Positions 3,894-40,601 of a DNA stretch of 53,809 nt are shown piece after piece. Both the position numbers and the translations under genes were made by a program. How positions within the stretch are numbered: position 1 is the stretch's first letter; each line of letters starts with the position of its first letter. Under the pieces are notes generated by a model. The model was given only the letters and a program-made list of their open reading frames with translations. It was not told the DNA's origin and made no database searches. Source of the stretch: Alphaproteobacteria bacterium (GTDB taxonomy: Bacteria; Pseudomonadota; Alphaproteobacteria; Sphingomonadales; SMXR01); assembly GCA_030634465.1 (NCBI GenBank), contig DAOWAS010000002.1, positions 1 through 53,809 of the forward strand, in the 5' to 3' direction.

Positions 3894-4096
3894 ATATTTT
3901 CCTATTTTTTTTTGAGGTTTTTCTGTTGCGCAATAAATAATTTTAATATTTAGTATGTGAACCTATAGGCAGTAAGCTGGCTAATCAAGTGTAAACAAAC
4001 GGGCTTCATTGCATCTCACTTACTTATATTATAATATTCTTATATTGTATGGAGTGTGTAGGAGTATTGATACATTTTTCTAATTCAGGGTGGGTG

Positions 4097-6443: not shown

Positions 6444-7379
6444 CTAACCATCTTTATTTATAATAGTGATTAACTCGTTGACCGTATTTGGTGCATCTAA
6501 ATTAGCAACCTGACAGGTGCCCGCAGCACTATGGCCTCCGCCGCCATATTTCAAACAAAGCTCTCCCACATTGGTGGCGGAAGACCGATCTAATATTGAT
6601 TTTCCGATAGCAAGAACTGTATTTTGCTTATCTTTACCCCACATTACATGAATAGAAATATTACACTTGGGGTAAATGGCGTAAATCAAGAAACGATTGC
6701 CAGTAAAAATGGTTTCTTCTTCCCGCAAGTCCAAAATAACTAGGTTTTTATGGACGGTTGAGCAGCGCTGAACTTGTTCCTTGAACTTTTCATTTTGCTC
6801 AAAATACAGTTTAATGCGCTCCTCCACGTCGGGCATTAAAAGAATTTCATCTATGCTCATTTCGCGGCAGCAATCGATTAAATTCATCATCAATTGGTAG
6901 TTTGAAATTCTGAATTTATGAAAGCGGCCCAGTCCGGTTCGGCTGTCCATTATAAAACTCAATAATACCCAACCCTTAGGGTCAAGAATTTCGCTTTCGC
7001 TAAATTGGGCTGAATCTGCCCGATCCACAGCATCCATCATCTCTTCACTAATTTTGGGAAACTTCTCGCTTCCACCATAGTGGTTATAAGCAACCCGCGC
7101 GGCAGATGGTGCATCAGGGTCGTTTATTAAATTGCTAATTTCCCCACCGCCTAGGCGACTAGTTTCGCTGGAATGATGGTCAATACAAAGGTGGCAGCCC
7201 TCTACGTAAGGCAGGTTAGTAGTTATGTCGCGGTCAGTAATTTCAACTAGGCCGTCTTGCATATCCTTTGGGTGAACAAATTTTATTTCGTCTATAAGGC
7301 CCATTTCCTTCAATAAGGCTGCGCAAACTAAACCATCAAAATCACTTCTGGTTACTAAACGATATTTTGTATCCGACAC
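6444..7379 (-). CDS. DHH-family phosphoesterase (exopolyphosphatase-related)
   Basis: 311 aa. The N-terminus (LVTRSDFDGLVCAALLKE...FVHPKDM) and the later IDHHS and GGGGHSAAG motifs are DHH/DHHA1-like. Confidence 0.6.
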   Translation of the reverse strand: MSDTKYRLVTRSDFDGLVCAALLKEMGLIDEIKFVHPKDMQDGLVEITDRDITTNLPYVEGCHLCIDHHSSETSRLGGGEISNLINDPDAPSAARVAYNHYGGSEKFPKISEEMMDAVDRADSAQFSESEILDPKGWVLLSFIMDSRTGLGRFHKFRISNYQLMMNLIDCCREMSIDEILLMPDVEERIKLYFEQNEKFKEQVQRCSTVHKNLVILDLREEETIFTGNRFLIYAIYPKCNISIHVMWGKDKQNTVLAIGKSILDRSSATNVGELCLKYGGGGHSAAGTCQVANLDAPNTVNELITIINKDG

Positions 7380-7602: not shown

Positions 7603-7710
7603 TGGTGATCACGGTAAGATTTACCGGCTCAAGTGCCGTTACCTTGCCGCTATCTCGAAATGCATTGCATTTCTGCGGCATTTTTGTTTTTGCGGTCGAA
7701 CCTGTCTTAC
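7603..7710. repeat. Structured repeat, copy 1 (tRNA-3'-end look-alike plus conserved hairpin)
   Basis: TGGTGATCACGG... aligns with copies at 22134 and 22303. Hairpin GCCGC(7646-7650)/GCGGC(7675-7679) encloses the palindrome GAAATGCATTGCATTTC, followed by ATTTTTGTTTTTG and the conserved TGCGGTCGAACCTGT. Confidence 0.75.
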
Positions 7711-7791
7711 ATTGTCTCAATGTAATTAGCTAAGTCGCACATTAATTGATCTTTATTCTAAAATCCAATAAGTAGTGGGTCTGGTGAATGC

Positions 7792-10437
7792 CTATAGAAG
7801 GTTTGACTTTGTTATTCGATGAAATTCATCAAGGCTTTCTTTTAGGGTTTTCTTTCCTATTTTTATTTCAGGTAAAAGTTTGGTTATATTCATTTTCTTT
7901 TCTTTTTTGCTTAATGTTTGGCACCAGTTTGTCATTTTAATAAAGCCAATAACGCCAGAAGCTCCTGTTAAACGATGAATATACTCTTGGAATTGTTTGG
8001 CATCATTGTTTGTAATTGCCTGCTCCATTAAGCTAAGTGTATTTGTGCAATTATCCTCGTATGAGGTGAGCATTTTATTGAACTCATTTTCAGGTAACAG
8101 CTCGTTATATTCACTTAATATATCTAAATTTAGTAGCTTGGAAGTTGCTGTAGCACTGCGTGCTGGCGCTATAGTCTCGGTAATAATATGCCGATCAAAG
8201 TGATGGCTAATTAATTGGTTGAACTCTTTTTTGTCAAAGGGTTTCGGAATTGTGTCTAACATGCCGACAGAGCGGTAAACCTCTTTAGCATGGGCGGAAA
8301 GGTCTGCGGTAAAGGCAAAAATAAGCGGGATGTTTTTATTATCAGCAAAAATTTCTTTTATTCTTTTTGTGGTTTCAATGCCGTCCATTTCGGGCATGTG
8401 AATGTCCATTAAAACAATATCAAACTCATTATTAATAACTTTTGAAATTGTCTCCTCACCTGATGAAGCCGTATCAACCTCGTGATTATCTAAAGATAGA
8501 AGTTTTGCAATTGTAATGCGATTACTTTCAAAATCATCAACAAGTAAAATTTTAAGAGGCTTTATGTTTTCGCTAGGAAGGTTTGTATTTTCCATGGCCT
8601 GAGGTGAGCCTTCTTCAAGGGTTAGAATAACGGAAAAATCACTTCCCTTTCCCTTTGCGCTTTCAAGAACTATTTCCCCATCTAAGGCTTCAACCAACTG
8701 GTTGCAAATAGTAAGGCCTAGCCCGTTACCGCCATACTTGCGTGAGGTGCCGGTTTCCTCTTGTTTAAAGGCATTAAATATATTCTGCTGGTTTTCTGGC
8801 GAAATTCCAATGCCAGTATCTTTTACAGAAATGCAAAGGGGTGCTGTTTCATTATCCGCATTTTTATCAAGATAAAACGCCTCTAAGGTGACGGTGCCAG
8901 TAATGGTGAACTTTATTGCATTATCAAGCAGGTTGGTAATAATTTGCCTAATTAGAAATGGGTCGCTCATTAAAACTGGGGGCAAAGCATCAATATTTTT
9001 TACAAGTGCTATTTCTTTTTGAACCGCCTTGTCTTTCATCATATCGTAGATGTCATTCAACAGTTCAGTTGGGTCAAAGGCTGTTTTGTTTAGCTTAACT
9101 TCCTCGTTTTCATTTTTTGAAAAATCAAGAATGTCATTTAGTAGTTTTAATAGAAATTGACCTGAGCGGCTAAGGCGGTCTACTAGCTCTTTCTGAGTTT
9201 TGTTGGTTTTGGTGGCCTCTAAAAGCTGAGATGTACCTAGTATGGCAGAAAGTGGGGTTCTGATTTCGTGGCTGACCGTCGCAATGAACGCACTTTTGGC
9301 TTGGTTGGCAACTTCTGCTTCATTTAGAGCCTGACTTATGGCCTGCTCTGCTTTTCTTCTGCGTTTAATTTCTGATCTAAACCTAATAATAAAAATGGCT
9401 AATAAAATAGATGTTATGGATGCAAGAAGAGCCCCGCCCGTTAAATATTTTGTTTGTTCTTTTAGTTGTCCTAGCTCTCGCCCCAGTGGGTTTTGGTCAT
9501 AAATAAAACCACTCAAATCCATTTCTTTGGATAGTATTCCCAAACTAGCGTAGTAAGCTTGGGTTCTATCCCAGCGTTCATGACTGGTGAAGCCAATAGG
9601 GACAACCTCTGGCATAATAAGGGTTTCTGTTTCATTGGCTTCGTACAATAAGTGCTCACGAGATTTGGGCACATCATATTCCTGCAACATCAGGTCTACG
9701 GTTTCTTCTTTGTTGCTCATGGCATATTGCCAACCCTTAAGGCTTGCTTCTAAAAACGCGTTTACAAGCTCAGGGTTTTCGTCAATTTTGCTTTGTGATG
9801 TGAATAAGTTGTCGCCATAAAAATCTAGCCCACCCATAATTGGGCTGAAAACAGTGTAGGGGATATTGTCTTTTTGAAATAAATATGGTTCGTTTGTAGT
9901 GTATATGGTTATTGCTTCAATCTCACCATTTAATAGTTTTTCAGTTGAGAACTCATGCTCAATAAGATTTAGCTTACTTAGATCAACACCCTCAGCATAT
10001 AGATATGCATAAAGCTCGGTTGAGCCTTTTTCGATCATAATTTTACGAGTTGCAAGGTCGTGGATGTTTTGAACATTGCTTGACCCAAGGGACAAAAAAC
10101 CAACAGCCGAGTGTTGGAATATATTTGCCAATATAACAGGTTCGAACCCTTGTTCTTTAAGCAACAAAACATCAGAGGAACCAACGGCAAAGTCCGCATC
10201 TCCTGTCATTACGCTGGTTAGTGGGTCTATGCTTGTTCCAGCTTCTTTAATGGTAACCTTAAGCCCAGCATCACGATAATAGCCCATTTGTTGCGCAGCA
10301 TAATAGCCAGCAAATTGATATTGGTGCTTCCACTTTAATTGCAGGGTTATTTCGGCAATGTCGCCCTTAGCAAATGCTGAGCTGCAAAATAATAAACTAA
10401 CAACAATGATCAGTGATGATATTAACTTTTGGTACAT
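7792..10437 (-). CDS. Hybrid sensor histidine kinase: periplasmic NMT1/SsuA-like solute-binding domain, TM, HisKA, HATPase, REC, Hpt
   Basis: Signal peptide, then [28 protein letters not shown] (SBP-like). TM segment [21 protein letters not shown]-box [13 protein letters not shown] boxes [34 protein letters not shown]...[11 protein letters not shown]. Hpt [12 protein letters not shown]. Confidence 0.9.
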
Positions 10438-10558
10438 AAAAAAGTCATCTTTGTGTTTGTTATAACAACTCTAACTGCCTGCTTATCAAACTATAATACC
10501 ATAGCGGTCACAAGATGAAAGGCTTTCTCTAAAGTTGGGGTTTTGCCAAACATTGCAG

Positions 10559-10582
10559 TGTTAGGAAGCTGTTAGAAAATGG
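10559..10582 (+). promoter_or_regulatory. Candidate OmpR/PhoB-type operator, site 1 (TGTTAGGAAGCTGTTAGAAAATGG)
   Basis: 7-bp direct repeat (C/G)TGTTAG with a 4-bp A-rich spacer (11-bp period). It lies in the divergent kinase/regulator intergenic region, 96 nt upstream of the regulator start. A near-identical site is at 11446-11468. Confidence 0.55.
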
Positions 10583-10677
10583 TTTGAGTTTAATTTGGTG
10601 TTGCGTTTACAATTTATTTTAAATTAAGTATTTTGCATATAAACTGTGCAATTAAGCTGCAATGATAGTTATGAATA

Positions 10678-11406
10678 ATGAACAATATTGACCAAAAGAC
10701 TTTTGATGACGTTGCTGCCAAAATTTTGGTGGTTGAAGATGACCCCACAATACAATTGGCTTTGAAAAGTGTTCTAAAGACACAAAATTGCGATGTGGTT
10801 ATTTTTGATAGGGTTGACCAGGCATGGGAGTGGCTTTTACATAACACCCCAAACGTAGCTATTCTCGATATAAATTTACCGGATGACACAGGGTTTAATT
10901 TAGCCTGTAAAATTAGGAAAAGTTTTGAGTGCGGCATACTAATTTTAAGCACACGGTCTAGCACTAATGATATGCTCCATGCGCTTGAGCTTGGTGTTGA
11001 TCATTATATTACTAAGCCATTTTTGCCGCGAGAGCTTCTTCTTCGTATCAATAATTTGATTTTAAGAAACAGACAGTTGGTTTCTTTGAAATCTACTGTC
11101 ATAGACGAAGTGCAAGTTGGAAACTGGCAAGTTTCGTTTGAGAAGCAACATATAGAAAACCAAAAGGATCAGGTAAAGGGCTTAACAAAGCTAGAGGCGA
11201 ATGTTTTGTTATTGCTAACTTCATCCCCAGGCAAGCTTTTCAACAGAGAAACATTGGTTCACAAAATTCATAATGGTCAAAAAAGACCCACAAACAGAAC
11301 TGTTGATCTGTTGATTATGGGTTTACGCCGAAAGCTAGAAGAGCCAAAGGGCAACCCTAAGCATATTATTACCGTAGCTGGTGGCGGTTATTACTTTCAA
11401 GAGTAA
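10678..11406 (+). CDS. OmpR/PhoB-family response regulator (REC plus winged-helix)
   Basis: REC is KILVVEDDPTIQ...VAILDINLPDDTG. The C-terminus (LTKLEANVLLLLTSSPGKLFNRETL...RTVDLLIMGLRRKLE...GGGYYF) is a typical trans_reg_C. Confidence 0.9.
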   Translation: MNNIDQKTFDDVAAKILVVEDDPTIQLALKSVLKTQNCDVVIFDRVDQAWEWLLHNTPNVAILDINLPDDTGFNLACKIRKSFECGILILSTRSSTNDMLHALELGVDHYITKPFLPRELLLRINNLILRNRQLVSLKSTVIDEVQVGNWQVSFEKQHIENQKDQVKGLTKLEANVLLLLTSSPGKLFNRETLVHKIHNGQKRPTNRTVDLLIMGLRRKLEEPKGNPKHIITVAGGGYYFQE

Positions 11407-11445
11407 TTCTCTTACTTTTATCTCAATTTTACACCCCGCAAGGCC

Positions 11446-11468
11446 TGTTAGAAAGCTGTTAGAAATGG
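11446..11468 (+). promoter_or_regulatory. Candidate OmpR/PhoB-type operator, site 2 (TGTTAGAAAGCTGTTAGAAATGG)
   Basis: Same architecture as site 1 (22 of 23 aligned positions identical, one 1-nt indel). It lies 122 nt upstream of the tpsB TTG start. Confidence 0.55.
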
Positions 11469-11589
11469 CTCTCAGGCTGTGTTTTGTCTTGTAATGTCTA
11501 GCCCTTAGGTAGTCTCTAGCTTAGGAGTATTATAATTTTAATCAATTTGTACTGGTTTTTGGCGAATTTCTATTTTTTAGGAGAATACC

Positions 11590-13281
11590 TTGTCTGTTAA
11601 GTTCAGCATTTCTTGCTTTAGTTCGTTGGTTGCGTTCAGTGTGCTCACATCTCCTTTTGTGCATTCGCAAGAGATTCCAAATAGCCTGCAACCAGATGTT
11701 ATTGATCGTCAGTTTGACCAGCTCCCTGATGCCACATCATCAAGCGCCATTTTAATTCCAACACCAAGCGAGCAATTGCCGCCTGATGTAGCAAGTGACA
11801 CAAGTCTTTTGCTTAATAGTGTGAGCTTGGAAGGTAATAACGAGTTTTCAACCGCTGAATTATCGCAATATTACCAAAGCTATATTGGTGAAAATGTAAG
11901 CCTTGCTACTTTTTTTGCCGTGGCTAATGCCATTACAGACCATTATGCGCAAGCAGGGTTTGCTCTGTCGCTAGCTTATGTGCCAGCGCAAGAAATTGAC
12001 AATGGTCATGTTAGACTTGTTGTGGTTGAGGGTTATGTTGGCGAAATTGATTATACGGGTGATGTGGATAAGGTAACAGATCGCCTGCGAAGTGTATTAA
12101 GCCCAATATTAAACGAACGCCCCTTAACAGTTGCAACAATGGAGAGGGCACTTCTGTTGGCTTCTCGTGAAACAGGTTTTGGTGTTGCTTCGTCTGTTGA
12201 TCGCTCAAGCATTGAGGTTGGTGCCTTGCGTTTAATCGTTGATGTGGAGAATGAACTGGTCAGCGGTGCAGTTGGTATTAACAACAGAGGCTCGCGCGCG
12301 TTGGGGGCGGTATTGGCGGACGTTTCAGTTTCGTTAAATGGTGCATTTGGTGTAGGTGAGCGAATAACAACAAGTCTAAACAAGTCTGTTGCTGATGATG
12401 AATTGTCATACTTCTCACTTGAGGCGGCCTTCCCAATTGGTGTCAACGGAACAGAGCTGTCAATTGGTTATGGCAAGTCAGATGCCAAGCCAGGGTTAGA
12501 AACATTAAGACTTCTTGAGTTTAATGCTGATAGTGAGACATATTTCGTGGAGCTATATCATCCGTTCATTCTTTCTAGAGCGAGAAACCTTAATGCTTCA
12601 GTTCGTTTTGAGGCCAGAGATTCTGAAGGTGAATTGCTGGATATTGTAAATACAAATGAGAAGCTACGCTCTTTACGTATTAGCGGCAGTTACGACATGG
12701 TTGATGATGCAGGCGCGGTAACGCTTGTTAAAACAACCTTTAGTCAGGGCATAAGTGCTTTTGGGGGTTCAGCAAATGATAATGAGTTTAAGGCACGTGA
12801 TCTTGCTCGGTATGATTACAGCAAAATTGATGTCCTGTTTTTCCAACTACGCCCAATTAATGAAACCCTAAGTGTTTATCTTAGCGGTGGAGCGCAGTAC
12901 GGCTTTAACCCCTTGGTTAGTTCAGAGCAGTGTGGCTTTGGCGGCGGCAGTTTTGGTCGTGCCTTTGATAGTTTCGAAATATCAGGCGACCATTGTGTTA
13001 ATGCCAGCGTAGAGCTTAGGTCCATGTACCCCAACCCTATGAAGGGTGTCGATTATATCCAGCCTTATGGTTTTGTTGACGGTGGCAAGGTGTGGCTAAA
13101 ACAAGCTGAAGGCGTTAGTTCAATTTCTCAAACTGGTTACAGCGCGGGTGCTGGTATGCGGGCAATGTTTTTGAACAACGTTAGTGGCTATGTTGAGGTG
13201 GCACTTCCAATAAATAGAGATGTTGAGCAGGCGGGCAATAGAAAAGCTCGTGTATTCGCTGGTTTGAGAGCAATTTTTTAG
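11590..13281 (+). CDS. TpsB (ShlB/FhaC/HecB-family) outer-membrane two-partner-secretion transporter
   Basis: 563 aa. TTG start with AGGAGAA 5 nt upstream. Signal peptide, a POTRA-like N-terminal region (VSLEGNNEFSTAEL..Y...IG), and a beta-barrel ending ...RVFAGLRAIF (aromatic C-terminus). It sits directly upstream of a TPS-domain exoprotein. Confidence 0.88.
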   Translation: MSVKFSISCFSSLVAFSVLTSPFVHSQEIPNSLQPDVIDRQFDQLPDATSSSAILIPTPSEQLPPDVASDTSLLLNSVSLEGNNEFSTAELSQYYQSYIGENVSLATFFAVANAITDHYAQAGFALSLAYVPAQEIDNGHVRLVVVEGYVGEIDYTGDVDKVTDRLRSVLSPILNERPLTVATMERALLLASRETGFGVASSVDRSSIEVGALRLIVDVENELVSGAVGINNRGSRALGAVLADVSVSLNGAFGVGERITTSLNKSVADDELSYFSLEAAFPIGVNGTELSIGYGKSDAKPGLETLRLLEFNADSETYFVELYHPFILSRARNLNASVRFEARDSEGELLDIVNTNEKLRSLRISGSYDMVDDAGAVTLVKTTFSQGISAFGGSANDNEFKARDLARYDYSKIDVLFFQLRPINETLSVYLSGGAQYGFNPLVSSEQCGFGGGSFGRAFDSFEISGDHCVNASVELRSMYPNPMKGVDYIQPYGFVDGGKVWLKQAEGVSSISQTGYSAGAGMRAMFLNNVSGYVEVALPINRDVEQAGNRKARVFAGLRAIF

Positions 13282-13299
13282 GTTCGGTAAGAGGTTATT

Positions 13300-16200
13300 A
13301 TGACACTTAGTAATAAAAAATATTTGAGATTATCAACAGGTTTGGGCCTTGTGATGGCACTAGCTGTTGTTACGGCAAATTATACCCAAGCTGCTGATAC
13401 CAAGCCAGAAGATGGTGAAGTTGTTCGTGGTGAAGCCACTATCGATTATAATGGCCTTAATACCACCATTAATCAAAACAGTCTTAAAGCCATTATTAAT
13501 TGGGACAGTTTTTCTGTTGGTGAGGCAGGCAGTGTTGTCTTCAACCAAACTGGTGCTGATGCCGTAACCCTTAACCGAGTTACTGGCGATGGTGTTTCTA
13601 ATATTTTGGGTTCAATTACCGCCCCTGGTCATGTGTTTTTAATTAACCGCAACGGTATTATTTTTGGTGAAGGCTCAACTATTAACGTTGGTGGTTTGGT
13701 TGCTTCAACATTCGACATTTCTGACAATAATTTTTGGTCAGGAAATTATTTGTTTGATAAGGCTGGGGTTGCCAGTGCTTCGGTTGAAAACTTTGGTAGC
13801 ATAACCATTAAAGAAGGTGGCTTGGCCGCATTTGTGGCGCCATATGTGGCAAACTCAGGCGTTATTAATGCCCGTCTTGGCTCAGTGTCATTGGGTGCTA
13901 GCGAAACAGGCTTTGCTTTAGATTTTTACGGTGACGGCTTAATTAAATTTGTGGTTCAAGAAGAAACCCAAGCGCGTCTTGGCCTTGGCGAAGACAGCTT
14001 AGTGGGTGTTGACGTGTCAGGCAGCATTTTGGCTGATGGTGGCATAGTTGCCATTACTGCTGATGTAGCGCGTGAGGTTGTATCTGACATTTTGACCATT
14101 GGCGGCGAAATTCGCGCCAATAGCATTGAGGAACGTGAAGGTAAAATTATCTTGTCAGGCCCTGACAATGGGCGCATTCGCATGAGCGAAGATGCCACGC
14201 TTGATGCAAGCGGTACTCACGGCGGTAGCATTGAGGTTGACGGCGACGTGGTGCTATTGGATGGCGTGTTAGATGCTAGCGGCGACGCGGCTGAATATAA
14301 TGACGCGCTTTCTTATCTATACGGTATTGGTGCGCAACAATCTATTATTGATACGGTTTTAGCACGTGCCAATGGCGGTAATATTAGCGTTAACTCCAAC
14401 TGGTTCAGCCTTGGTGGCGTGCTTGATGTTAGCGGTGCCAACGGTGGTAACATTGACATTAACGTAGGTGGTTTTTCAAACACTGGCGTTAGTTTGGCAA
14501 TTGGCCAGCAAGGCGGCGGTGGTAATATTAGCTTTGATGTTGATACCACAGTATTAGAATTTAACATGGCTTACACCGATGCCTCAGGTTTGGTTGATGG
14601 TGGCTCTATCAGCATGCTTGCTGGGCATCAAATAACATCATCTGGCACATATGTGGCAGATGGCTTGTTGGGTAACGGCGGTAATATTGATGTTTCAGCC
14701 AGCGTAACCAAATCGCTATCAGCACGCTACGGTGCGCGCGGTGGTATTGACGGTGGTCGCATTCGCTTTGGTGGCGAGTTCCAAGGCGGCAAAAACTTAG
14801 CAGAAGGCACAGACGAACTAGCCAATGCTGATGTTACAATTGTCAGTTCTGGTTCGCTTTTTGATGTAACTGGTGGCGGCACTGATGGTATTGGTGGCGG
14901 TGAAGTTATTATCTGGTCGGATGACAAAACCATTTTCCAAGGCTTGATAACAGGCGATGGTGCCTTTGTTGAGGTGTCGTCAGCAGGCGATTTAGAATTT
15001 GTGGGTGATGTTGAAATTGGCGATGGTGAGCTGTTATTAGACCCTAAAAACCTTATTATAACAGAACTATTTGGCACTCCATCGCTCTCTCTTATCCTTG
15101 GTTATCAATATTCTGACGTGCAGCAAGAGGCAGGCACATGGATTGAAAGCTTTGATAATTTTGGGGTGAGGGTAGCACTTGATGGCGACCATTTAGCTGT
15201 TGGTGCCATGATGGACAAGGGGGCTGATAACGCCACATCTAGTGCCGGTGCTGTTTATTTATTCACCTTCATAGCTGGCGATATGTCACAACCTGTTTTG
15301 TCAGCCATTATTGGTGCTGATTATACTGGCGGTAATAATATTGATAATACCTCCATTGAAGCTGGGGATACCTTTGGTTACGGCCTTGCACTAGAGGGCA
15401 ATAAATTGGCTGTTGGTGCAGCCAATGACGATGGCTTTGGTAATGGCGCCATATTCTCAGGTGCTGTATATTTATACACTTTCACAGATAATTTTAATTC
15501 CATTACTGAGGTTGCTGTAATCGGATCTGGTTATACTGTAGGTGAAAATGTAGATGTTGGTCCCCTTGACCTGGGGGATGCTTTTGGTACCAACATAGGG
15601 TTAAGCGGCAACCTTTTAGCCATTGGTGCATCAGGTGATGATGGTAACGCTAATGGATTAACGGATTCAGGTGCGGTTTATCTTTTTAGTTTTACTGGTG
15701 ACTTTACCTCCATAACTCAACAAGCAATAATTGGCTCAGGTTACGCTGGAACTAATGATCTCGACCATACTGGCCTTGAGGCAAGCGACAGGTTTGGCTC
15801 AGCAGTGGCATTGGACGGCACTCTTTTGGCAGCTGGCTCACCTAGTGATGATGGTAGTGGTAATGGTGTATCTGCTGCAGGTGCGGTTTATCTTTATAGT
15901 TTCACTGGCAACTTTACCTCTATAACCCAACAAGCAATTATTGGTGCTGATTATGCAGGCACTAATGATGTTGATAATACTGCACTTGAAATAAATGATT
16001 TTTTTGGTTCATCAATTGCTCTTGACGGTACACATTTAGCAATAAGTGCCACTGGTGATGATGGTAGCGGCAATGGTGTGTCTGGTTCAGGCGCTGTATA
16101 TCTTTATAGTTTTGCTGGCGATTTTACCTCTATAACTCAACAAGCAATAATTGGTGCTGATTATACAAGTGGTAACAATGTTGATAACCATCATTTAGAT

Positions 16201-19200
16201 GGTGATGCCTTTGGCAGGTCATTAGCTTTGGATGGCGGCCGTTTGGTTGTTGGCACTTTTAGTGATGATGGTGCAGATAATTCATCAACAGATTCTGGCG
16301 CAGTTTATCTTTATAGCTACACAGGTGATTTCACCAACATCACCCATGAAGATACTATTGGTTATGGCTATGCGACAGATATTTCTTTGGATGTTGATGA
16401 TTATTTTGGCAGAAGCTTGGCTTTGAGAGGCAGCCTGTTGGCTGTGGGTGCAAGTGGTGATGATGGCATTGGAAATGCCACAACTTATGCGGGAGCGGTT
16501 TATTTATTCACTTTTATCGGCAGTGATCTTACAAACCCAATTTTGTCTGGTATTATTGGGCAAGGTTATACAGGTGGTAATAATGTGGATAACACTGCGC
16601 TTGCTAGTGGTGATGTTTTTGGTGCTGCAGTTGCACTTGATGGAAACCATTTAGCTGTTGGTGCTACTGGTGATGATGGTAGTGGCAATGGTGTGCCTAC
16701 TTCAGGTGCTGTGTATTTGTATAGCTTTACTGATAACTTTAAAGCCATAACCCTAGAGGCAATTATAGGTGCTGATTACGCTGGCACAAATGATTTAGAT
16801 AACACTTCGCTCCAGCCTAGTGACCAGTTTGGGGTATCAGTTGCACTTGATGGCACCCATTTGGCCGTTGGTGCGTTTAGTGATGATGGTAGTGCAGATG
16901 ACGTGTTGACAGGTGGCGCAGTTTATTTATATAGCTTTACAGGTGATTTTACCTCAATAACCCAACAAGCTATCATTGGTTCTGACTATTCTGGTGGCAA
17001 CAATTTTGATGTTGCATCCATTGAAAGCAGTGATTATTTTGGTTCGTCGGTGGCATTAGATGGCACACTTTTGGCCGTGGGGGCGTGGAGAGATAGCGGT
17101 ATATACTCTAGTGCTTATGGTGCGGTCTATCTATTTAGTTTTACTGGTGATTTCACGGGCATCACCCAAGAAGCCATTATAGGGCAGGGCTATTCGGGTG
17201 GTAATAACGTTAATAATAATTGGTTAGGCGATCAAGACCAGTTTGGCTATTCAGTGGCGTTAGATGGCAACCTTTTGGCCGTAGGTGCTCCTTCAGATGA
17301 TGGTTACACTGGCGGGTGGAATAATGGTAAGGTTTATTTATACAGTTTTACAGGAAACTTCACATCTATAACACTTGAATCCCACGTTGGTTGGAATTTC
17401 ACAGGTACAAATGATGTTCATAATAGTAGCCTAGAATATAGTGACAAATTTGGCAGTGCAATTGCATTAGATGGCACCAACTTAGTTATTTCTGCCAAAG
17501 ATGATGATGGTGGCGATAACAGTGTTGAAAATTCTGGCGCAGTTTATCTTTATAGTTTTACTGGTAATTTCACTGATATTACATGGCAAGAAACCCTTGG
17601 CCATGGGCAAGAGATAAACTTTGACCTTGGTGTAGGTGATAGGTTTGGCAGTTCAGTAGCCTTGGATGGTAAGCATTTGGCTGTTGGTGTGTCTAGCGAT
17701 GATGGTGTTGGTGATGGAGTGCCCTCAGTAGGTGCAGTTTATTTATACACTTTTCTGGGTGATGATTTAAAGAACCCTATATTGTCAGCCATTATTGGTG
17801 ATGGTTACAGCGGTGGTAATAATATAGACAATACGTCACTTGGGTTTGCCGATATATTTGGTGCATCAGTTGCCCTCGAGGGTGATCTTTTAGCAGTTGG
17901 TGCAGTTGGAGATGACGGTAGCGCTGATGGTGTTACTGATGCAGGTGCTGTTTATCTATATAGTTTTACAGGAGATTTTAGCTATATAACCGAGCGTGCC
18001 ATAATAGGGTCTGGATACACAAATAGTGGAGATGTGGACAACACAGCACTCGGTGCGAGTGATTATTTTGGACGCTCAGTTGCACTTGATGGCTCACTTT
18101 TAGCAGTTGGCGCTGATGGTGATGATGGCGCTGCGGATGGAGTGTCAGATGCAGGTGCTTTGTATATTTATAGCTTTAGTGGGAATTTTGCATCATTAAA
18201 CCAAGAAATGGTAATTGGCTCTGGTTATTCTGGAGCCAATGCGGTTGATAACACCTCACTTGAAGCTGGTGACCAGTTTGGTTATTCAGTGGCTCTTGAT
18301 AGCCCACTGATAGCTGTAGGGGCCATCAGCGATGATGGTAGTTTTGATGATACACCTAATGCTGGTGCAGTTTATCTTTATAGCTATATTAATGACCTAA
18401 CCACCATTACCCAACGGGCGATTATTGGGGTCGATTATTCGGGTGGTAACAATATTGATAATACAGCGATACAATCCGCGGATAGGTTTGGCTATTCGGT
18501 GGCACTAGATGGCACGCATTTGGGCGTTGGTGCACCATTAGATGATGGATTTAATAATAATGTGTCTAATTCAGGATCGGTCTATCTTTATAGTTTCGCA
18601 GGTAGTTTCAACGCACTAAGTTTAGAGGCAACCATTGGTGCTGATTATACTGGCGGTAATAATGTTGACGAGACATTTGTTGAAGCTAATGATGAGTTCG
18701 GTAGATCTATATCTTTAGACGGAAATAATTTAGCTGTTGGTGCAATGGGTGATGACGGCAGTGATAATAGTCTTTTGACTATGGGCGCTGTTTATCTTTA
18801 TGAAAATGTGTTTGCACCTGTTACGGGAGCAACTGGTTGGAACTTTGCTGACGATACTGGTGCCACAAGTATAGTTGACGTTAATCAAATAACAGATATT
18901 CTTAATGCTGGCACCAATGTTACTCTGCAAGCATCAAACGACATTACACTTAATACGGACCTGATTGTAGCTAACCTTTCTGGCTATGGAGGTACACTAA
19001 CCCTGCAATCTGGTCGCAGTATTTTAATAAATGGTAATGTCACTACTGATCATGGCAGTTTGACATTTGTGGCAAATGATATTGCGGCAAATGGTGTTGT
19101 AAATGCCGACCGCGATGCAGGTGCCGCAGCAATTACAATGGCAAGTGGAACGTCTATTGATACTGGGACTGGTGCTTTTAAAGCTACTCTCTCTACAGGG

Positions 19201-21558
19201 GCGGGTAATACCAATTTAACATCAGGCGACATCACCCTAACCGATGTAACCTCTGAAACTATACTTGTTGAAAATTTGGGGGCATCTAACGGCGATGTAA
19301 TATTAAACGGTGTGTTATATGCAACAGAAGCAGCTGGCTTTACCACCCCACTTGTTGTGGCATCACTTGGTGGTAACTTTATAAACAACGTAGGTGCTGG
19401 TGCTTTGGTTGTTGAAGACACTGGCGAAGATTACAATCGTTGGCTTGTTTACAGTCAAAACCCAACAGACAACACCAATGGTGGTTTGGATGGTATTCAG
19501 TGGTATAACACAACGTATAATAGCGCTGCGCCAACCACGATTAATGATTTCACCGATAGTAATCGCTTTGTTTATACTCAAACAGCTACATTGTTAATAA
19601 CCGCAGACGATGTGAGCCGTGATTATGGTTTGGCTAACCCCACCTTTACCACCACAATAACTGGTTTTGTAAATGGTGAAACAGATGCGATAATGTCTGG
19701 CTCAGCGGCAACACCAACCACAACAGCAACTGCCACTACTAATGTGGGTACAGCTGTTATCACACCCGGGTATGGTAGCCTTAGTGACCGTTATAATTAC
19801 CAAGCGTCGCTGGTTAATGGCACACTAACAATCGACCCTGCCACTTTAACAGTAACAGCAGATGATGCCTCTCGTACTTATGGCGAGGCTAACCCAACAT
19901 TAACCTCAAGCATAACTGGTTTTATGAATGGGGAAACATCTTCTGTATTATCAGGTGCGGCTGGAACCCCATCAACAACAGCTACAGCCACAACTAATGC
20001 AGGCACAACGGCTATAACTATTGATACAGGTACACTTTCTGCAACTAACTATGTGTTCGTTGCAGCAGATGGCACCCTTACAATAAATAAAGCCACGCTA
20101 ACTGTTACGGTTGGTGATGAAACACGAGTTTATGGCGATGCCACCGAGATTTTTAATGTGAATGTTACAGGTTTTGTTAATGGCGAAGATATATCTGTAG
20201 CTTCTAACTTAACACTTTCATCCAATGCAACAGCAACGTCAGATGTAGGCACATATGCTTTAAGTGGTTCAGATGCTACCGCCGACAATTATACATTTAC
20301 CTATGTTGATGGTGCCTTAACCATAACCAAAGCACGGTTAACAATTGTTGGTGCAGACGCGACCTCCACTTACGGAACAGTTCGCACTGATTATGATTAT
20401 AGTGTTACTGGGTTCTTAAATGGTGATGATGCTTCTGTAATAACTGGCGCGGTAATATTTGATTTAGATCCAAATTATAGCGCAACGTCGGCAGCAGGAT
20501 CACAGTTTGAAATAGATACAAATGCTTTAGGTCTAGCATCAACCAATTACACCTTCACTGGGGTTGATTTGATATTAACCGTTGAGAAAGCACCATTGAC
20601 CGTAACCTTAGGCGACGATAGTAAAACATACGATGGTTTGGCCTACAGCGGTGGTAACGGTATAACTTACACAGGCTTAGCTAATGGCGAAACCGAGGCA
20701 GTGCTTGGTGATGTGCTATCATTTGGTGGCACAGCGCAAGGTTCTGTTAATGCGGGTACATATACAATTACCCTTGAGGGCTTAACCTCAACCAACTACA
20801 CCATAACCTTTGTTGATGGTGCCTTAACCACCGACAAGGCGGCTTTAAGCGTTACAGCTAATGATGATAGCAAAATTGCTGATGGCGTTGCCTATAGCGG
20901 TGGTAACGGTGTTGTTTACGCAGGCTTTGTAAACAGCGAAACTGATACTGTATTGGGTGGAGATGTAACATATAGCGGCACCTCACAAGGTGCAGTTGAC
21001 GCAGACACATATGTAATTACACCTGAGGGTCAAACCTCTGATAATTACACCATAACCTATGTTGATGGCACCTTAACCATTGAAGCTGGTGCTGGCGGCG
21101 ATGGCGGTGACGGTGGTTCAGACGACCCTGCTGATCCTGTTAATGACCCTGTGCCACCTGCGCCTCCTGTAAGCGACCCACCTGTTGATACTTCAACAGA
21201 TAGTTTGCCAGATAACTCACCTGCACCAACAGCTCAGGTTGTTAGCTCTGGCAGTGTTTTGGTTGTGGCTAACGCTGTTACAGAAGAAATAACTATCACC
21301 TCAAATGTGATAAGTGTTGAGCTTCCAGACGGTATATTTGACCATGAGGACGACACAGCTACATATACAGTAACAGCGACATTGCCAAATGGTGAGCCGT
21401 TACCTGAATGGTTGTCATATGATGCCGAGACCAATACATTAACTGGTGTTGTTCCTGAGGGCTTCTCAGGTGAGATTGACGTATTGCTAACCGCTGAAGA
21501 TGCACAGCAAAATACAGCACAGACAGTTGTTAAAATTAATGTAACCTCAGAAGGTTGA
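13300..21558 (+). CDS. Giant TpsA exoprotein (2752 aa): TPS/haemagglutination-activity domain, beta-helix, 18 FG-GAP-type blades, beta-helix, 6 MBG-type repeats, Pro-rich linker, cadherin/Ig-like C-terminal domain
   Basis: Sec signal peptide. TPS motifs are INQNSLKAIINWDSFSVGEAGSVVFNQ...LNRVTGDGVSNILGSI...FLINRNGIIFG. The blade consensus FG.SVALDG..LAVGA..DDG.G.G....GAVYLYSF occurs 18 times. The MBG-like unit (TLTVTADDASRTYGEANP...NY.F...DGTLTI) occurs 6 times. The tail is TATLPNGEPLPEWLSYDAETNTLTGVVPEGFSGEIDV. Confidence 0.9.
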   Translation: MTLSNKKYLRLSTGLGLVMALAVVTANYTQAADTKPEDGEVVRGEATIDYNGLNTTINQNSLKAIINWDSFSVGEAGSVVFNQTGADAVTLNRVTGDGVSNILGSITAPGHVFLINRNGIIFGEGSTINVGGLVASTFDISDNNFWSGNYLFDKAGVASASVENFGSITIKEGGLAAFVAPYVANSGVINARLGSVSLGASETGFALDFYGDGLIKFVVQEETQARLGLGEDSLVGVDVSGSILADGGIVAITADVAREVVSDILTIGGEIRANSIEEREGKIILSGPDNGRIRMSEDATLDASGTHGGSIEVDGDVVLLDGVLDASGDAAEYNDALSYLYGIGAQQSIIDTVLARANGGNISVNSNWFSLGGVLDVSGANGGNIDINVGGFSNTGVSLAIGQQGGGGNISFDVDTTVLEFNMAYTDASGLVDGGSISMLAGHQITSSGTYVADGLLGNGGNIDVSASVTKSLSARYGARGGIDGGRIRFGGEFQGGKNLAEGTDELANADVTIVSSGSLFDVTGGGTDGIGGGEVIIWSDDKTIFQGLITGDGAFVEVSSAGDLEFVGDVEIGDGELLLDPKNLIITELFGTPSLSLILGYQYSDVQQEAGTWIESFDNFGVRVALDGDHLAVGAMMDKGADNATSSAGAVYLFTFIAGDMSQPVLSAIIGADYTGGNNIDNTSIEAGDTFGYGLALEGNKLAVGAANDDGFGNGAIFSGAVYLYTFTDNFNSITEVAVIGSGYTVGENVDVGPLDLGDAFGTNIGLSGNLLAIGASGDDGNANGLTDSGAVYLFSFTGDFTSITQQAIIGSGYAGTNDLDHTGLEASDRFGSAVALDGTLLAAGSPSDDGSGNGVSAAGAVYLYSFTGNFTSITQQAIIGADYAGTNDVDNTALEINDFFGSSIALDGTHLAISATGDDGSGNGVSGSGAVYLYSFAGDFTSITQQAIIGADYTSGNNVDNHHLDGDAFGRSLALDGGRLVVGTFSDDGADNSSTDSGAVYLYSYTGDFTNITHEDTIGYGYATDISLDVDDYFGRSLALRGSLLAVGASGDDGIGNATTYAGAVYLFTFIGSDLTNPILSGIIGQGYTGGNNVDNTALASGDVFGAAVALDGNHLAVGATGDDGSGNGVPTSGAVYLYSFTDNFKAITLEAIIGADYAGTNDLDNTSLQPSDQFGVSVALDGTHLAVGAFSDDGSADDVLTGGAVYLYSFTGDFTSITQQAIIGSDYSGGNNFDVASIESSDYFGSSVALDGTLLAVGAWRDSGIYSSAYGAVYLFSFTGDFTGITQEAIIGQGYSGGNNVNNNWLGDQDQFGYSVALDGNLLAVGAPSDDGYTGGWNNGKVYLYSFTGNFTSITLESHVGWNFTGTNDVHNSSLEYSDKFGSAIALDGTNLVISAKDDDGGDNSVENSGAVYLYSFTGNFTDITWQETLGHGQEINFDLGVGDRFGSSVALDGKHLAVGVSSDDGVGDGVPSVGAVYLYTFLGDDLKNPILSAIIGDGYSGGNNIDNTSLGFADIFGASVALEGDLLAVGAVGDDGSADGVTDAGAVYLYSFTGDFSYITERAIIGSGYTNSGDVDNTALGASDYFGRSVALDGSLLAVGADGDDGAADGVSDAGALYIYSFSGNFASLNQEMVIGSGYSGANAVDNTSLEAGDQFGYSVALDSPLIAVGAISDDGSFDDTPNAGAVYLYSYINDLTTITQRAIIGVDYSGGNNIDNTAIQSADRFGYSVALDGTHLGVGAPLDDGFNNNVSNSGSVYLYSFAGSFNALSLEATIGADYTGGNNVDETFVEANDEFGRSISLDGNNLAVGAMGDDGSDNSLLTMGAVYLYENVFAPVTGATGWNFADDTGATSIVDVNQITDILNAGTNVTLQASNDITLNTDLIVANLSGYGGTLTLQSGRSILINGNVTTDHGSLTFVANDIAANGVVNADRDAGAAAITMASGTSIDTGTGAFKATLSTGAGNTNLTSGDITLTDVTSETILVENLGASNGDVILNGVLYATEAAGFTTPLVVASLGGNFINNVGAGALVVEDTGEDYNRWLVYSQNPTDNTNGGLDGIQWYNTTYNSAAPTTINDFTDSNRFVYTQTATLLITADDVSRDYGLANPTFTTTITGFVNGETDAIMSGSAATPTTTATATTNVGTAVITPGYGSLSDRYNYQASLVNGTLTIDPATLTVTADDASRTYGEANPTLTSSITGFMNGETSSVLSGAAGTPSTTATATTNAGTTAITIDTGTLSATNYVFVAADGTLTINKATLTVTVGDETRVYGDATEIFNVNVTGFVNGEDISVASNLTLSSNATATSDVGTYALSGSDATADNYTFTYVDGALTITKARLTIVGADATSTYGTVRTDYDYSVTGFLNGDDASVITGAVIFDLDPNYSATSAAGSQFEIDTNALGLASTNYTFTGVDLILTVEKAPLTVTLGDDSKTYDGLAYSGGNGITYTGLANGETEAVLGDVLSFGGTAQGSVNAGTYTITLEGLTSTNYTITFVDGALTTDKAALSVTANDDSKIADGVAYSGGNGVVYAGFVNSETDTVLGGDVTYSGTSQGAVDADTYVITPEGQTSDNYTITYVDGTLTIEAGAGGDGGDGGSDDPADPVNDPVPPAPPVSDPPVDTSTDSLPDNSPAPTAQVVSSGSVLVVANAVTEEITITSNVISVELPDGIFDHEDDTATYTVTATLPNGEPLPEWLSYDAETNTLTGVVPEGFSGEIDVLLTAEDAQQNTAQTVVKINVTSEG
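15100..18804 (+). repeat. In-frame array of 18 FG-GAP-type units (~64-70 codons each) with a 6-unit higher-order period
   Basis: I counted 18 (A/K/S)(V/L)Y(L/I)(Y/F) cores. Variant short-linker blades start at nt 15100, 16360 and 17599. Neighbouring units share long near-identical DNA: 15913-15954 vs 16123-16164 is 40/42 identical. Confidence 0.85.
19585..21084 (+). repeat. Six tandem MBG-type (YG-containing) domain repeats, ~83 codons each
   Basis: Each unit opens A(T/A/P/R)L(T/S)(V/I)T..D.S(R/K).YG (YDG or ADG in the last two units) and closes NY.(F/I).(Y/F)VDG.LT(I/T). Confidence 0.7.
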
Positions 21559-21583
21559 TATAAAAAAACTAAAGGAAATAAAA

Positions 21584-22099
21584 ATGAGACATGCCGTTTT
21601 ATTGGGTCTAGCTTTGAGTTTTTACCCAACATTCAGTGCTAATGCACAAGAAAGTACAAGCTACACTTATGGTGACTGGAAAGTTACATGTGTTGAACGT
21701 GAAAATGCGTTGCCATGTGAAATGACACAAAGCTTAATCGACAGTACATCTGGTCAAACTGTAACACATTTTTCACTAGCTTATTCACCCGTTGATGAAG
21801 CTTATGCCATACAAATATCAGTACCCCTAGGCGTTAAGCTAGAGGGCGGCATGGTTATAAAAGCAGGGGAAACAGTTGTTGAGGGCATACGCTTCTCTCG
21901 TTGTTTGCCAGGCGGTTGCTTAATTGAAGCAAAACTGGAAGACCCATTGTTAGGAGCCATGTCAGCTGGTGGTGAGGCCGCAATTGCAGTGGTTGATGCA
22001 TCAGGGCAGGCAGTTTCGTTGCCATACTCACTAAACGGCTTCGCTGATGCTAAAGCACAACTGGTGAAAGAGACCACCACCCGCATGCCTCAGAACTAA
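21584..22099 (+). CDS. Invasion-associated locus B (IalB)-family periplasmic protein
   Basis: 171 aa. Signal peptide ...FSANAQE. YGDWKVTCVE...LPCEMTQSL...FSLAY...V.EGIRFSRCLPGGCLIEA is the IalB pattern. It starts 25 nt after the tpsA stop, with an AAGGAA SD. Confidence 0.75.
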   Translation: MRHAVLLGLALSFYPTFSANAQESTSYTYGDWKVTCVERENALPCEMTQSLIDSTSGQTVTHFSLAYSPVDEAYAIQISVPLGVKLEGGMVIKAGETVVEGIRFSRCLPGGCLIEAKLEDPLLGAMSAGGEAAIAVVDASGQAVSLPYSLNGFADAKAQLVKETTTRMPQN

Positions 22100-22133
22100 T
22101 CTAATTATTTAGAACAACATTCAAGAAAGAAAA

Positions 22134-22257
22134 TGGTGATCCCGAGTGGATTTACCATCGCTTTGCTCTGTTGCCTTGGTGCTGTTTCGAAATGCAATGC
22201 ATTTCTGCACCATTTTTGTTCTTGCGGTCGAACCTGTTTATTCCACAGATTCAAATC
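22134..22257. repeat. Structured repeat, copy 2
   Basis: TGGTGATCCCGAGTGGATTT matches the 3' end of the tRNA gene (plus-strand TGGTGATCCCGACAGGATTT) at 18/20 positions. Hairpin GGTGC(22178-22182)/GCACC(22207-22211) encloses GAAATGCAATGCATTTC, then ATTTTTGTT and TGCGGTCGAACCTGT. Confidence 0.8.
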
Positions 22258-22302
22258 AGCGTTCCATCCATTCACTTTATTCTCCAAAGGGAATGCAGCG
22301 AG

Positions 22303-22425
22303 TGGTGATCCCGAGTGGATTTACTGTTTCGCGCTATGCGCTCACATTACCTTGGTGCTATTTCGAAATGCTGTGCATTTCTGCACCTGCGGTCGAACTT
22401 CTTTATTCCACAGCTTCAAATTCAC
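22303..22425. repeat. Structured repeat, copy 3 (tandem to copy 2, 169 nt offset)
   Basis: Same 20-nt tRNA-end look-alike. Hairpin GGTGC(22354-22358)/GCACC(22383-22387) encloses GAAATGCTGTGCATTTC. The T-run is deleted, and TGCGGTCGAACTTCT is conserved. Confidence 0.8.
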
Positions 22426-22434
22426 TTCTGGTTA

Positions 22435-22461
22435 CCAAACAAAAACCCGCCAATGGCGGGC
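22435..22461 (-). terminator. Rho-independent terminator of tRNA-Arg
   Basis: The minus strand reads GCCCGCC-ATT-GGCGGG followed by TTTTTGTTTGG, starting 8 nt after the tRNA 3' end. Confidence 0.75.
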
Positions 22462-22468
22462 TTGTGTT

Positions 22469-22545
22469 TGGTGATCCCGACAGGATTTGAACCTGTGGCC
22501 TCAAGATTAGGAATCTTGCGCTCTATCCAACTGAGCTACGGGACC
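22469..22545 (-). tRNA. tRNA-Arg (anticodon CCT), CCA encoded
   Basis: 77 nt: GGTCCCG TA GCTC AGTTGGATA GAGC G CAAGA TTCCTAA TCTTG AGGCC ACAGG TTCAAAT CCTGT CGGGATC A CCA. All four stems pair (one G-T in the acceptor stem). The anticodon loop TT-CCT-AA gives CCT. Confidence 0.93.
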
Positions 22546-22682: not shown

Positions 22683-22955
22683 ATGAAAAGCCGAAAAGAA
22701 AAACTTGAGGGTGTTATTGCAAAGGGGAAGTGGCACTTTGTATTTTGGCGGGGTATGGTTTTTTGGGGTCTTAGCACAGCAATTTCAGTTAAAGTTGTCA
22801 TTTATTTTATAAGCGGCACCCCGTTTCTTGAAGATATATGGGTTTGGATATTCACTTTCACCCTAATGGGTGGCCCGCTTTTTGGGTTGTTTATGTGGCC
22901 AATAATCAATCGTCAGTATGAAAAGCTGAAGCACAAAGAAAATATGCCTGAGTAG
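22683..22955 (+). CDS. Small membrane protein (2 predicted TM helices), hypothetical
   Basis: 90 aa with an AGGGGG SD 5 nt upstream. Hydrophobic stretches are VFWRGMVFWGLSTAISVKVVIYFI and IWVWIFTFTLMGGPLFGLFMWPII. Confidence 0.55.
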   Translation: MKSRKEKLEGVIAKGKWHFVFWRGMVFWGLSTAISVKVVIYFISGTPFLEDIWVWIFTFTLMGGPLFGLFMWPIINRQYEKLKHKENMPE

Positions 22956-39683: not shown

Positions 39684-40601
39684 ACGTCCACACAATCCTT
39701 AGATTTAATTACGCATTTTCTAGAGGTTTTAGCGGCTGAGCGTGGGGCGGCAAAAAACACCCTGCTTTCATACGAAAGAGATCTGCGCCTGTTTCAAGAG
39801 GTTTTAAACAAGCCATTGTTAGAGGTGAATATAGATGAGGTGCGAGATTATTTGGCGCACTTGGAGGCACAAGGCTTGTCGCGGGCAACACAGGCGCGCC
39901 GTCTTTCAACCCTTCGTCAGTTTTTCAAATTTCTTTGTGCTGAGGGAATGCGGGTTGATAACCCTGTGGCTAATTTGGACAGCCCGCAAAAGCACAGATC
40001 ATTACCAAAAATTTTAAGCCAAGACGATGTAAACTGTTTGTTGCAAACCGCAAGGGACAGTTATGACAGGAAGAAAAATCTTTCATCCATAAGGCTGTTG
40101 GCATTGTTAGAGATGTTATATGCCACAGGCTTAAGAACTCGCGAGTTGATAGACCTAGCAAAAAGTGCGGGGGCAAGCAGTTGGCAATGCAGCGTTGTTA
40201 AGCGAAAGGGTGGACGGGAACGCATTGTCCCCCTCAGCCAGCAGGCAAAAGACACGGTTTGTGAATATGTATTGGTATTAAACCAAAACCCAAAATTTAG
40301 TGAAAGTCGTTGGTTGTTCCCCTCACGTGGGGCATCGGGCAAGCTTTCACGAGTGCGGTTGTTCCAACAGCTAAAAACACTAGCAATTGAGGCGGGCATT
40401 AACCCAAAAAACATATCAGCCCATGTGTTACGCCATGCATTTGCCACACATTTGTTGGCTAATGGTGCTGATCTGAGGTCAGTGCAAAAGATGTTAGGCC
40501 ACGCGGATATTTCAACAACACAAATCTATACCCATGTTTTAGATGAGCGGTTGAAAGCACTGGTGGTAGAGAAGCACCCTCTAAGTGATGGTAATGGTTA
40601 A
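39684..40601 (+). CDS. xerD: Site-specific tyrosine recombinase XerD (start codon unresolved)
   Basis: N-terminal SAM-like domain: LITHFLEVLAAERGAAKNTLLSYERDLRLF, ARRLSTLRQFFKFL. Catalytic C-terminus: HVLRHAFATHLLANGADLRSVQKMLGHADISTTQIYTHV. See the finding about the start. Confidence 0.85.
   Translation, partial: TSTQSLDLITHFLEVLAAERGAAKNTLLSYERDLRLFQEVLNKPLLEVNIDEVRDYLAHLEAQGLSRATQARRLSTLRQFFKFLCAEGMRVDNPVANLDSPQKHRSLPKILSQDDVNCLLQTARDSYDRKKNLSSIRLLALLEMLYATGLRTRELIDLAKSAGASSWQCSVVKRKGGRERIVPLSQQAKDTVCEYVLVLNQNPKFSESRWLFPSRGASGKLSRVRLFQQLKTLAIEAGINPKNISAHVLRHAFATHLLANGADLRSVQKMLGHADISTTQIYTHVLDERLKALVVEKHPLSDGNG

Follow-up and report, generated by a model that had tools for sequence, protein, structure and literature searches.

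Here, we describe the surroundings of a tRNA-Arg(CCT) gene in a DNA stretch of 53,809 nt (contig DAOWAS010000002.1 of assembly GCA_030634465.1, Alphaproteobacteria bacterium, SMXR01), which was analyzed as a whole and is called the window below. The contig originates from marine metagenome samples labelled ZHAN22-2 and tRNA-Arg(CCT) is the only tRNA gene of the window. We found that the DNA beyond the 3' end of this gene differs between strains from the first base after CCA and that the last 20 nt of the tRNA recur there as the tip of a 125-130-nt repeat. Three copies of this repeat (modules A, B and C) are present in the window and a block of five genes (histidine kinase, response regulator, TpsB, TpsA, IalB) is located between modules B and C. 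With moderate confidence, we interpret the DNA 3' of tRNA-Arg(CCT) as a hot spot of site-specific recombination and the repeats as junction modules of the attachment site (att) type.

Strain variation at the 3' end of tRNA-Arg(CCT)

The closest representative genomes are metagenome-assembled genomes (MAGs) of Kordiimonadales, and the RpoH identity to them is just 56%. Therefore, related contigs were sought by exact-protein look-ups. The contigs obtained for strain variants mostly end at or before the tRNA and all strain comparisons described here rest on short metagenomic contigs. The right flank of the tRNA (SNase-like gene, rpoH, carD) is common to the sister contigs, with identities of 92-99.9%. 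On the left side, three different flanks were found in sister strains and each of them differs from the base after CCA. The window-type flank (terminator, module A, module B, IalB gene) is also present in contigs L042, L046 and scaffold_342. In L030, the right flank of which is 99.87% identical to the window, the end of a Sel1-like open reading frame (ORF) lies 45 nt from the tRNA, and neither a terminator nor a module is present; a database match was not found for this Sel1-like fragment. L043 carries a homologous terminator with compensating changes, one module and the end of an unrelated gene, and here the sequence identity is 97% right of the tRNA and about 75% left of it. The contig of the 97% strain (L044) begins exactly at the last base of the tRNA. 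Moreover, two window-type contigs from different samples both break off 54 nt into the tRNA, in keeping with an assembly fork.

A similar picture was obtained for more distant genomes. Five distant relatives retain the gene order Fdx-CarD-RpoH-SNase-tRNA-Arg(CCT), and unrelated genes follow the tRNA, among them genes for a TonB receptor/FecR, a methylase together with NurA and HerA, a CAAX protease/TPR and Sel1 as well as unknown ORFs. When the Kordiimonadaceae MAGs L007 and L004 were compared, 83% identity was observed as far as the final tRNA base and, further on, from yjdM onwards. Between these two points the MAGs carry unrelated DNA, which amounts to 1.0 kb in L007 (with a convergent Sel1 gene) and 5.2 kb in L004 (unknown ORFs). 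Since homology is lost at the tRNA end and regained at yjdM, the interval between the two genes is an old variable locus. In the window, yjdM is found on the matching strand at 568-918, which is 21.5 kb away from the tRNA, and the arrangement in L030 resembles that of L007.

Because the flanks of the sister strains and the homology to distant relatives break exactly at the tRNA 3' end, this end is a recombination hot spot, and both the hot spot and the boundary on the tRNA side are well supported. The first-pass annotation had suggested that positions 7603-22468 may form an integrase-less genomic island. The last base of the tRNA holds as a boundary of such an island (L030, L043, L044; L004/L007), but one discrete island was not shown. 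Likewise, the comparison with related genomes proposed there revealed a left flank that varies from the tRNA end, but no strain in which the DHH gene directly follows the tRNA. In general terms, these findings illustrate the well-known principle of a gene-swapping hot spot at a tRNA site, here for a strain-variable locus (tRNA-Arg(CCT) to yjdM) in a marine alphaproteobacterial lineage that has been sampled poorly and is related to Kordiimonadales.

Several additional observations were made on these contigs. L042 is free of mismatches to the window over 1179 nt left of position 22727 and has 14 mismatches in the 736 nt right of it, a pattern that would fit if diverged strains had exchanged the left segment or if the MAG consensus were chimeric. 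At positions 1422-1916 of the same contig (window 23431-23436), two ORFs are called for the SNase-like gene and a run of six bases deviates from the window, which may be a small rearrangement or an assembly error. The window contains a 90-aa ORF (22683-22955, plus strand) between the tRNA and the SNase-like gene, for which no homologue was detected in 5.8 billion clusters. In the 97% strain (L044, positions 97-256), about 160 nt of other sequence are present in place of this ORF and thus, the 5' side of the tRNA is also slightly variable. At the other end of the interval, the 97% strain (L045, 1934-3583) carries an extra DUF6119 gene (549 aa) between yjdM and acrB, which is not present in the window; this is a second strain-variable point. 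In the distant relative L005 (6339-11476), genes for a DNA methylase, NurA and a HerA-like helicase directly follow tRNA-Arg(CCT) and look like a defence-type island at the same tRNA. Finally, L004 carries two overlapping degenerate tRNA-Arg(CCT) 3' ends at 15425-15472, about 430 nt downstream of the tRNA, the better of which matches at 17/20 positions. This tRNA-end scar is a short cargo-poor unit like those of the window, but it lacks similarity to the window module.

Anatomy and distribution of the junction modules

The first-pass annotation had placed the end of the tRNA gene at 22469, look-alikes of its 3' end at 22303 and 22134 (18/20 identical) and a more diverged copy at 7603. ARAGORN and Rfam confirmed the gene (22469-22545), and the two nearer sites are confirmed as well. 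The first 20 plus-strand nucleotides of the tRNA gene (TGGTGATCCCGACAGGATTT) recur at these two sites with two mismatches each, and the chance expectation for such matches is 0. The site at 7603-7622 (16/20) is weak when taken alone, but it terminates a 127-nt copy of the repeat and is confirmed on these grounds. The annotation was also right about the offsets (166 and 169 nt) and about the kinase stop at 7792. However, the repeated unit is not restricted to 20 nt. The look-alikes are the tips of the 125-130-nt repeat, the core of which is recovered by nhmmer with E-values of 1e-32 to 1e-41, and a weaker 5' extension takes each copy to about 165 nt. All three copies have the orientation of the tRNA and the resemblance to the tRNA is confined to the last 20 nt of the module (from half-way through the T-loop to CCA).

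Module A, together with the terminator, begins at the base following the tRNA and thus directly at the tRNA 3' end, where an island would be expected. The offsets between the tRNA, module A and module B are 166 and 169 nt, and A and B constitute cargo-less units of these sizes. Module B is located 34 nt past the IalB stop codon and module C about 60 nt past that of the kinase. A fourth copy was found in the sister contig L043, where it is also located 3' of the tRNA and in its orientation. Sequence identity among the copies ranges between 71% and 86% and two subtypes can be distinguished; B and C have the 5' extension and an 11-nt insertion in common. The L043 copy is 86% identical to module C and 79% identical to module A. 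Thus, the tRNA-adjacent copy differs between strains and the units turn over.

When read in the direction of the tRNA, each module consists of a variable 5' part, a conserved arm that comprises about 100 nt and contains three hairpins, and the 20-nt tRNA-Arg(CCT) end. In the tRNA-adjacent copy, the variable part is a strong terminator. The arm starts with a hairpin closed by UUGAA/UUCGA, which is followed by the invariant GGTTCGACCGCA and, in B and C, by the A-rich 11-nt insertion. Next comes a 5-bp stem around an invariant 7-bp hairpin (GAAATGC-NNN-GCATTTC), then AAGGTAA, a copy-variable hairpin and the end GGTAAATCC-NNNCG-GGATCACCA. In the tip, the two halves of an imperfect inverted repeat are separated by a 5-nt spacer (GGTAAATCC-ACTCG-GGATCACC) and, in our reading, the tip may resemble the core sites at which tyrosine recombinases act. 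A 25-nt stretch that marks the 5' edge of module A matches codons 7-15 of the PggH gene (Table 1), which may be captured flank DNA or a chance match.

The tips of modules A and B (AAATCCACTCGGGATCACCA) match, base for base, the 3' end of another tRNA-Arg(CCT) allele, which is that of the Kordiimonadaceae MAGs L004 and L007. The T stem of this allele is AGTGG/CCACT, whereas the tRNA of the window has ACAGG/CCTGT and that of L043 AGAGG/CCTCT. Conversely, the tip of the L043 module corresponds to the allele of the window tRNA (CCTGT), unlike the tRNA of L043 itself. Since the tips of A and B equal another allele exactly, they are true tRNA ends and not chance matches, and it is unlikely that decay of the resident sequence would have reached another functional allele by chance. 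In this respect the first-pass annotation was right in recognizing real tRNA-Arg(CCT) ends, but the two remnants of about 170 bp that it described are not decayed forms of each other: the modules are 71-86% identical and fall into two subtypes. Nor do the mismatches in A and B reflect decay, since they are those of the L004/L007 allele.

Tandem tRNA arrays typically have a period like the 166-169 nt seen here, and the modules might be decayed tandem duplicates of the tRNA gene with its spacer (a pseudo-tRNA array), in which case the block would have arrived by an unrelated route. The interiors of module C and the L043 copy align in register with the tRNA from the D-loop to the anticodon arm (GCAAG...CTTGAG). 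However, this similarity between module interior and tRNA body is not significant (p 0.06-0.7), and neither ARAGORN nor the Rfam tRNA model detected a tRNA in the modules. The tips represent different intact alleles and not a decayed resident one, and copy C is 14.5 kb off, directly at the other end of the block. We therefore regard such an array as quite unlikely. On the ARAGORN and Rfam results and the p-values given above, intact or decayed tRNA was rejected as the identity of the modules, and a permuted transfer-messenger RNA was rejected because ARAGORN found none.

We next consider the distribution of the repeat. Neither nhmmer nor a covariance model detected further module copies elsewhere in the window, in 10 kb of additional flank or in 390 kb of related loci, and no other tRNA-3'-like site was found in the window. 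Searches outside the lineage gave chance matches or nothing; this applies to the hairpin pattern of the module core (GTDB representatives, JGI metagenomes, IMG/VR), to the tip pattern (GTDB representatives, IMG/VR) and to BLAST searches of the module against phages and plasmids. A short, hairpin-rich, intergenic repeat with several copies recalls dispersed elements of the repetitive extragenic palindromic (REP) or miniature inverted-repeat transposable element (MITE) type, for which the position at the tRNA would be coincidental. The generic REP-like nature that the first-pass annotation had considered is not borne out: all copies are located 3' of tRNA-Arg(CCT), the other ~46 kb of the window, the additional flank, the related loci and the databases named above are free of them, and the repeat has neither terminal inverted repeats nor a target-site duplication. 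We consider a generic element of this kind extremely improbable.

The modules might also have a structural role. According to this explanation, the module is a functional structured RNA, a folded-DNA or a regulatory element with a tRNA-like tip that arose by chance; the copies would go back to local duplication and the bracketing of the block would be incidental. In the 5-bp stem (helix 2), two pairs are changed on both sides (GGTGC/GCACC vs. GCCGC/GCGGC) around the invariant 7-bp hairpin. Compared with shuffled sequence, the minus strand folds better, with z-scores of -2.8 to -3.1, and the z-scores of the plus strand are -0.95 to -2.6. A T-tract follows the hairpin of B and C on the plus strand, so that the hairpin could terminate tpsA-ialB transcription. 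On the other hand, the covariation comes from only four sequences and is weak, being reached by 15 of 500 shuffles. Rfam 15 did not yield a family match at permissive thresholds (overlapping matches were at chance level, with E-values of at least 0.7), a conserved promoter is lacking and copy A starts right after a strong terminator. Moreover, the allele-exact tips and the strain breakpoints at the tRNA end are left unexplained. Thus, we consider an explanation by structure and local duplication unlikely.

Recombination model and comparison with known systems

The layout of the modules is what would be expected for attR or attP sites, in which the arm of an element is followed by a carried tRNA end that would rebuild the gene on integration. 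In the model we favour, segments would be stacked and swapped at the tRNA site by a recombinase, the gene of which lies elsewhere or has been lost. The five-gene block from the kinase to IalB would be cargo between modules B and C, which is now integrase-less and either cis-mobilizable, like a cis-mobilizable element (CIME), or fixed. The assignment of the modules as att sites, a far boundary at 7603 and mobility of the block as one unit would follow from this model, and a recombinase, its type and the order of events are putative components of it.

The following observations weigh against the model. An integrase or excisionase was not found in or beside the block by Pfam. Among the contigs compared, there is no strain in which the PggH/DHH flank is joined to the tRNA (a precise empty site), and the DNA past the outermost repeat is different in every variant; these contigs thus do not establish a simple insertion. 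The strain evidence from short contigs may be due to chimeric joins or to a second, identical copy of the tRNA. Three independent reductions of elements to arms-only units of about 166 nt are hard to explain by decay. The two covarying base pairs of the arm and its minus-strand fold z-score of about -3 could point to an RNA or folded-DNA role. A foreign origin of the block is not evident either, since the nearest named homologue of its TpsB comes from Emcibacter. Emcibacter is another marine alphaproteobacterial genus and is probably related to this lineage. Finally, the compositional signal is mild. The first-pass annotation had proposed a comparison of base composition between the block and its flanks, and the block does have a lower GC content at third codon positions (0.31-0.37 vs. 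mostly 0.39-0.50 in the flanks) and lower tetranucleotide correlations. With the right flank as reference, these correlations were 0.92-0.95 for right-flank segments, 0.86-0.90 for positions 1-15 kb and for the left flank, and 0.60-0.88 in the block overall, with 0.60-0.75 for TpsA, the repeats of which confound the measure. The signal comes mostly from the repeat-rich TpsA gene, and the DNA left of copy C (1-7.6 kb) is similarly atypical.

In a more unusual reading, the modules would not be passive scars but working units of a cassette system that has tRNA-Arg(CCT) as its anchor. The cassettes, whether they contain genes or not, would then each terminate in a structured element (about 100 nt) followed by a 20-nt mimic of the tRNA end, and a recombinase encoded elsewhere would read the folded element (as IntI does with attC) or act via base pairing. 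The units of 166-169 nt would be complete cargo-less cassettes or miniature integrative elements that consist of an att site only. The locus is like an integron cassette array in being an ordered array at one anchor, in the existence of ORF-less units and in units that end in a structured element of about 100 nt, the structure of which is kept better than its sequence. Unlike integrons, it has no IntI gene, no attI and no R''/R' core motifs that we could identify, and its anchor is a tRNA end, so that we speak of a resemblance only. We consider a cassette system very unlikely. A guide-RNA reading, in which a scaffold would carry a 3' guide matching the tRNA as in transposon homing, was set aside because there is no nuclease or transposase gene nearby.

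The model of a recombination hot spot with att-type modules can be compared with several known systems. For tyrosine integrase sites in tRNA genes, a sublocation scheme, cited in PMC3146451, was reportedly introduced by Williams in 2002. The window shares with these classical sites a repeat that extends from the T-loop to CCA and a core that is an imperfect inverted repeat around a short spacer, but there is no integrase beside the tRNA and no matching element that bears an attP site. The ssrA islands of Dehalococcoides are tandemly arranged on the downstream side of a tRNA-like gene, with a 20-bp repeat that starts in the T-loop and, just upstream of this repeat, a further conserved motif without counterpart in the gene (McMurdie et al. 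2011; PMC3146451). Many of them have no integration module, for which a cis-mobilizable or fixed state was proposed, and the ssrA region is highly variable between strains (PMC3146451). Tandem stacking, the T-loop-starting repeat, upstream conservation, the lack of an integration module and strain variability are all found here as well. In contrast to the Dehalococcoides islands, the target is tRNA-Arg(CCT) and not ssrA, the arm comprises about 100 nt with hairpins (compared with 15 nt there), two units are free of cargo, and neither a serine integrase (DsiB) module nor another recombinase was seen.

CIMEs and site-specific accretion are known from the ICESt1/ICESt3 family of Streptococcus thermophilus (reviewed in PMC5704250). 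Similar to CIMEs, the block is devoid of integration and transfer genes, has att-like repeats at both ends and belongs to a tandem stack at the 3' end of the target gene. In fact, Pfam did not detect a recombinase or transfer gene in the block, while modules B and C bracket it. Unlike CIMEs, the units of 166-169 nt are far smaller than those described, a partner element is not known and cis-mobilization is a putative trait here. If the cargo-less units are mobile by themselves, they would be the smallest integrative units described. The module of about 130 nt may serve as a probe for finding the recombinase and other cargo in the same metagenomes.

The cargo block and its flanks

The coordinates of the features are summarized in Table 1. 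The block shows the setting of a two-partner-secretion adhesin with its own two-component regulators. As the first-pass annotation had noted, there is no integrase gene in the region 7.6-22.5 kb, in which the five block genes carry other Pfam assignments. The sole integrase-family gene of the window encodes a XerD-like tyrosine recombinase (39816-40601, plus strand) and adjoins accA. It is probably the housekeeping chromosome-dimer resolvase and was rejected as integrase of the island, as it is located 17 kb away beside accA.

Table 1. Features of the tRNA-Arg(CCT) locus in the window
Feature	Position	Strand	Evidence and remarks
tRNA-Arg(CCT) gene	22469..22545	-	ARAGORN; Rfam tRNA 72.8 bits; recombination boundary at the last base (22469)
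Intrinsic terminator that immediately follows the tRNA, 5' part of module A	22443..22463	-	terminator scan
Module A	22303..22440 (core 22303-22427, tip 22303-22322)	-	nhmmer E 2e-32; covariance model 113.9 bits
25-nt stretch, 5' edge of module A	22416..22440	.	23/25 identical to 7336-7360 (PggH gene codons 7-15); local BLAST E 5e-5, junction-limited search space
Module B	22134..22302 (core 22134-22262, tip 22134-22153)	-	nhmmer E 3e-41; covariance model 141.4 bits; alignment
IalB-family protein, cargo	21584..22099	+	Pfam
TpsA exoprotein, 2752 aa, cargo	13300..21558	+	Pfam: TPS domain, 18 FG-GAP stretches, 6 MBG stretches, He_PIG (C-terminal)
TpsB (ShlB/FhaC-type) transporter, cargo	11590..13281	+	Pfam
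OmpR-type response regulator, cargo	10678..11406	+	Pfam
Hybrid histidine kinase (NMT1-like sensor, HisKA, HATPase, REC, Hpt), cargo	7792..10437	-	Pfam
Module C	7603..7775 (core 7603-7729, tip 7603-7622)	-	nhmmer E 2e-36; covariance model 132.5 bits
PggH-like DHH/DHHA1 phosphodiesterase, first gene past module C	6444..7379	-	PDB 7D62 PggH, E 5e-136

The nearest homologues of TpsB are 63% (a Logan contig), 44% and 41% (Emcibacter sp.) identical, and a close relative was not found in the GTDB representatives. For YjdM, a 113-aa protein, SNase and RpoH, variants from 93-97% strains are on record. For the block proteins, variants from these strains are not on record and this hints at an absence of the block from them. 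Within the TpsA gene, a 35-nt DNA repeat occurs in two near-identical copies (15310-15344 and 18634-18668).

Beyond module C, the PggH-like protein is 65-71% identical across many phyla, compared with 56% for RpoH of this genome and its nearest relatives. Its gene is present in the 93-95% strain. Among PggH/DHH homologues in 80 genomes, no linkage to tRNA-Arg, to the module or to the other genes of the window was observed and therefore, the idea that PggH was the ancestral neighbour of the tRNA gains no support. Near the PggH gene, a response regulator is encoded (4049-5572, plus strand) that combines two receiver domains with an HD domain of the HD-GYP type. The PggH-like pGpG phosphodiesterase and this HD-GYP-type regulator look like a pair for the breakdown of cyclic di-GMP.

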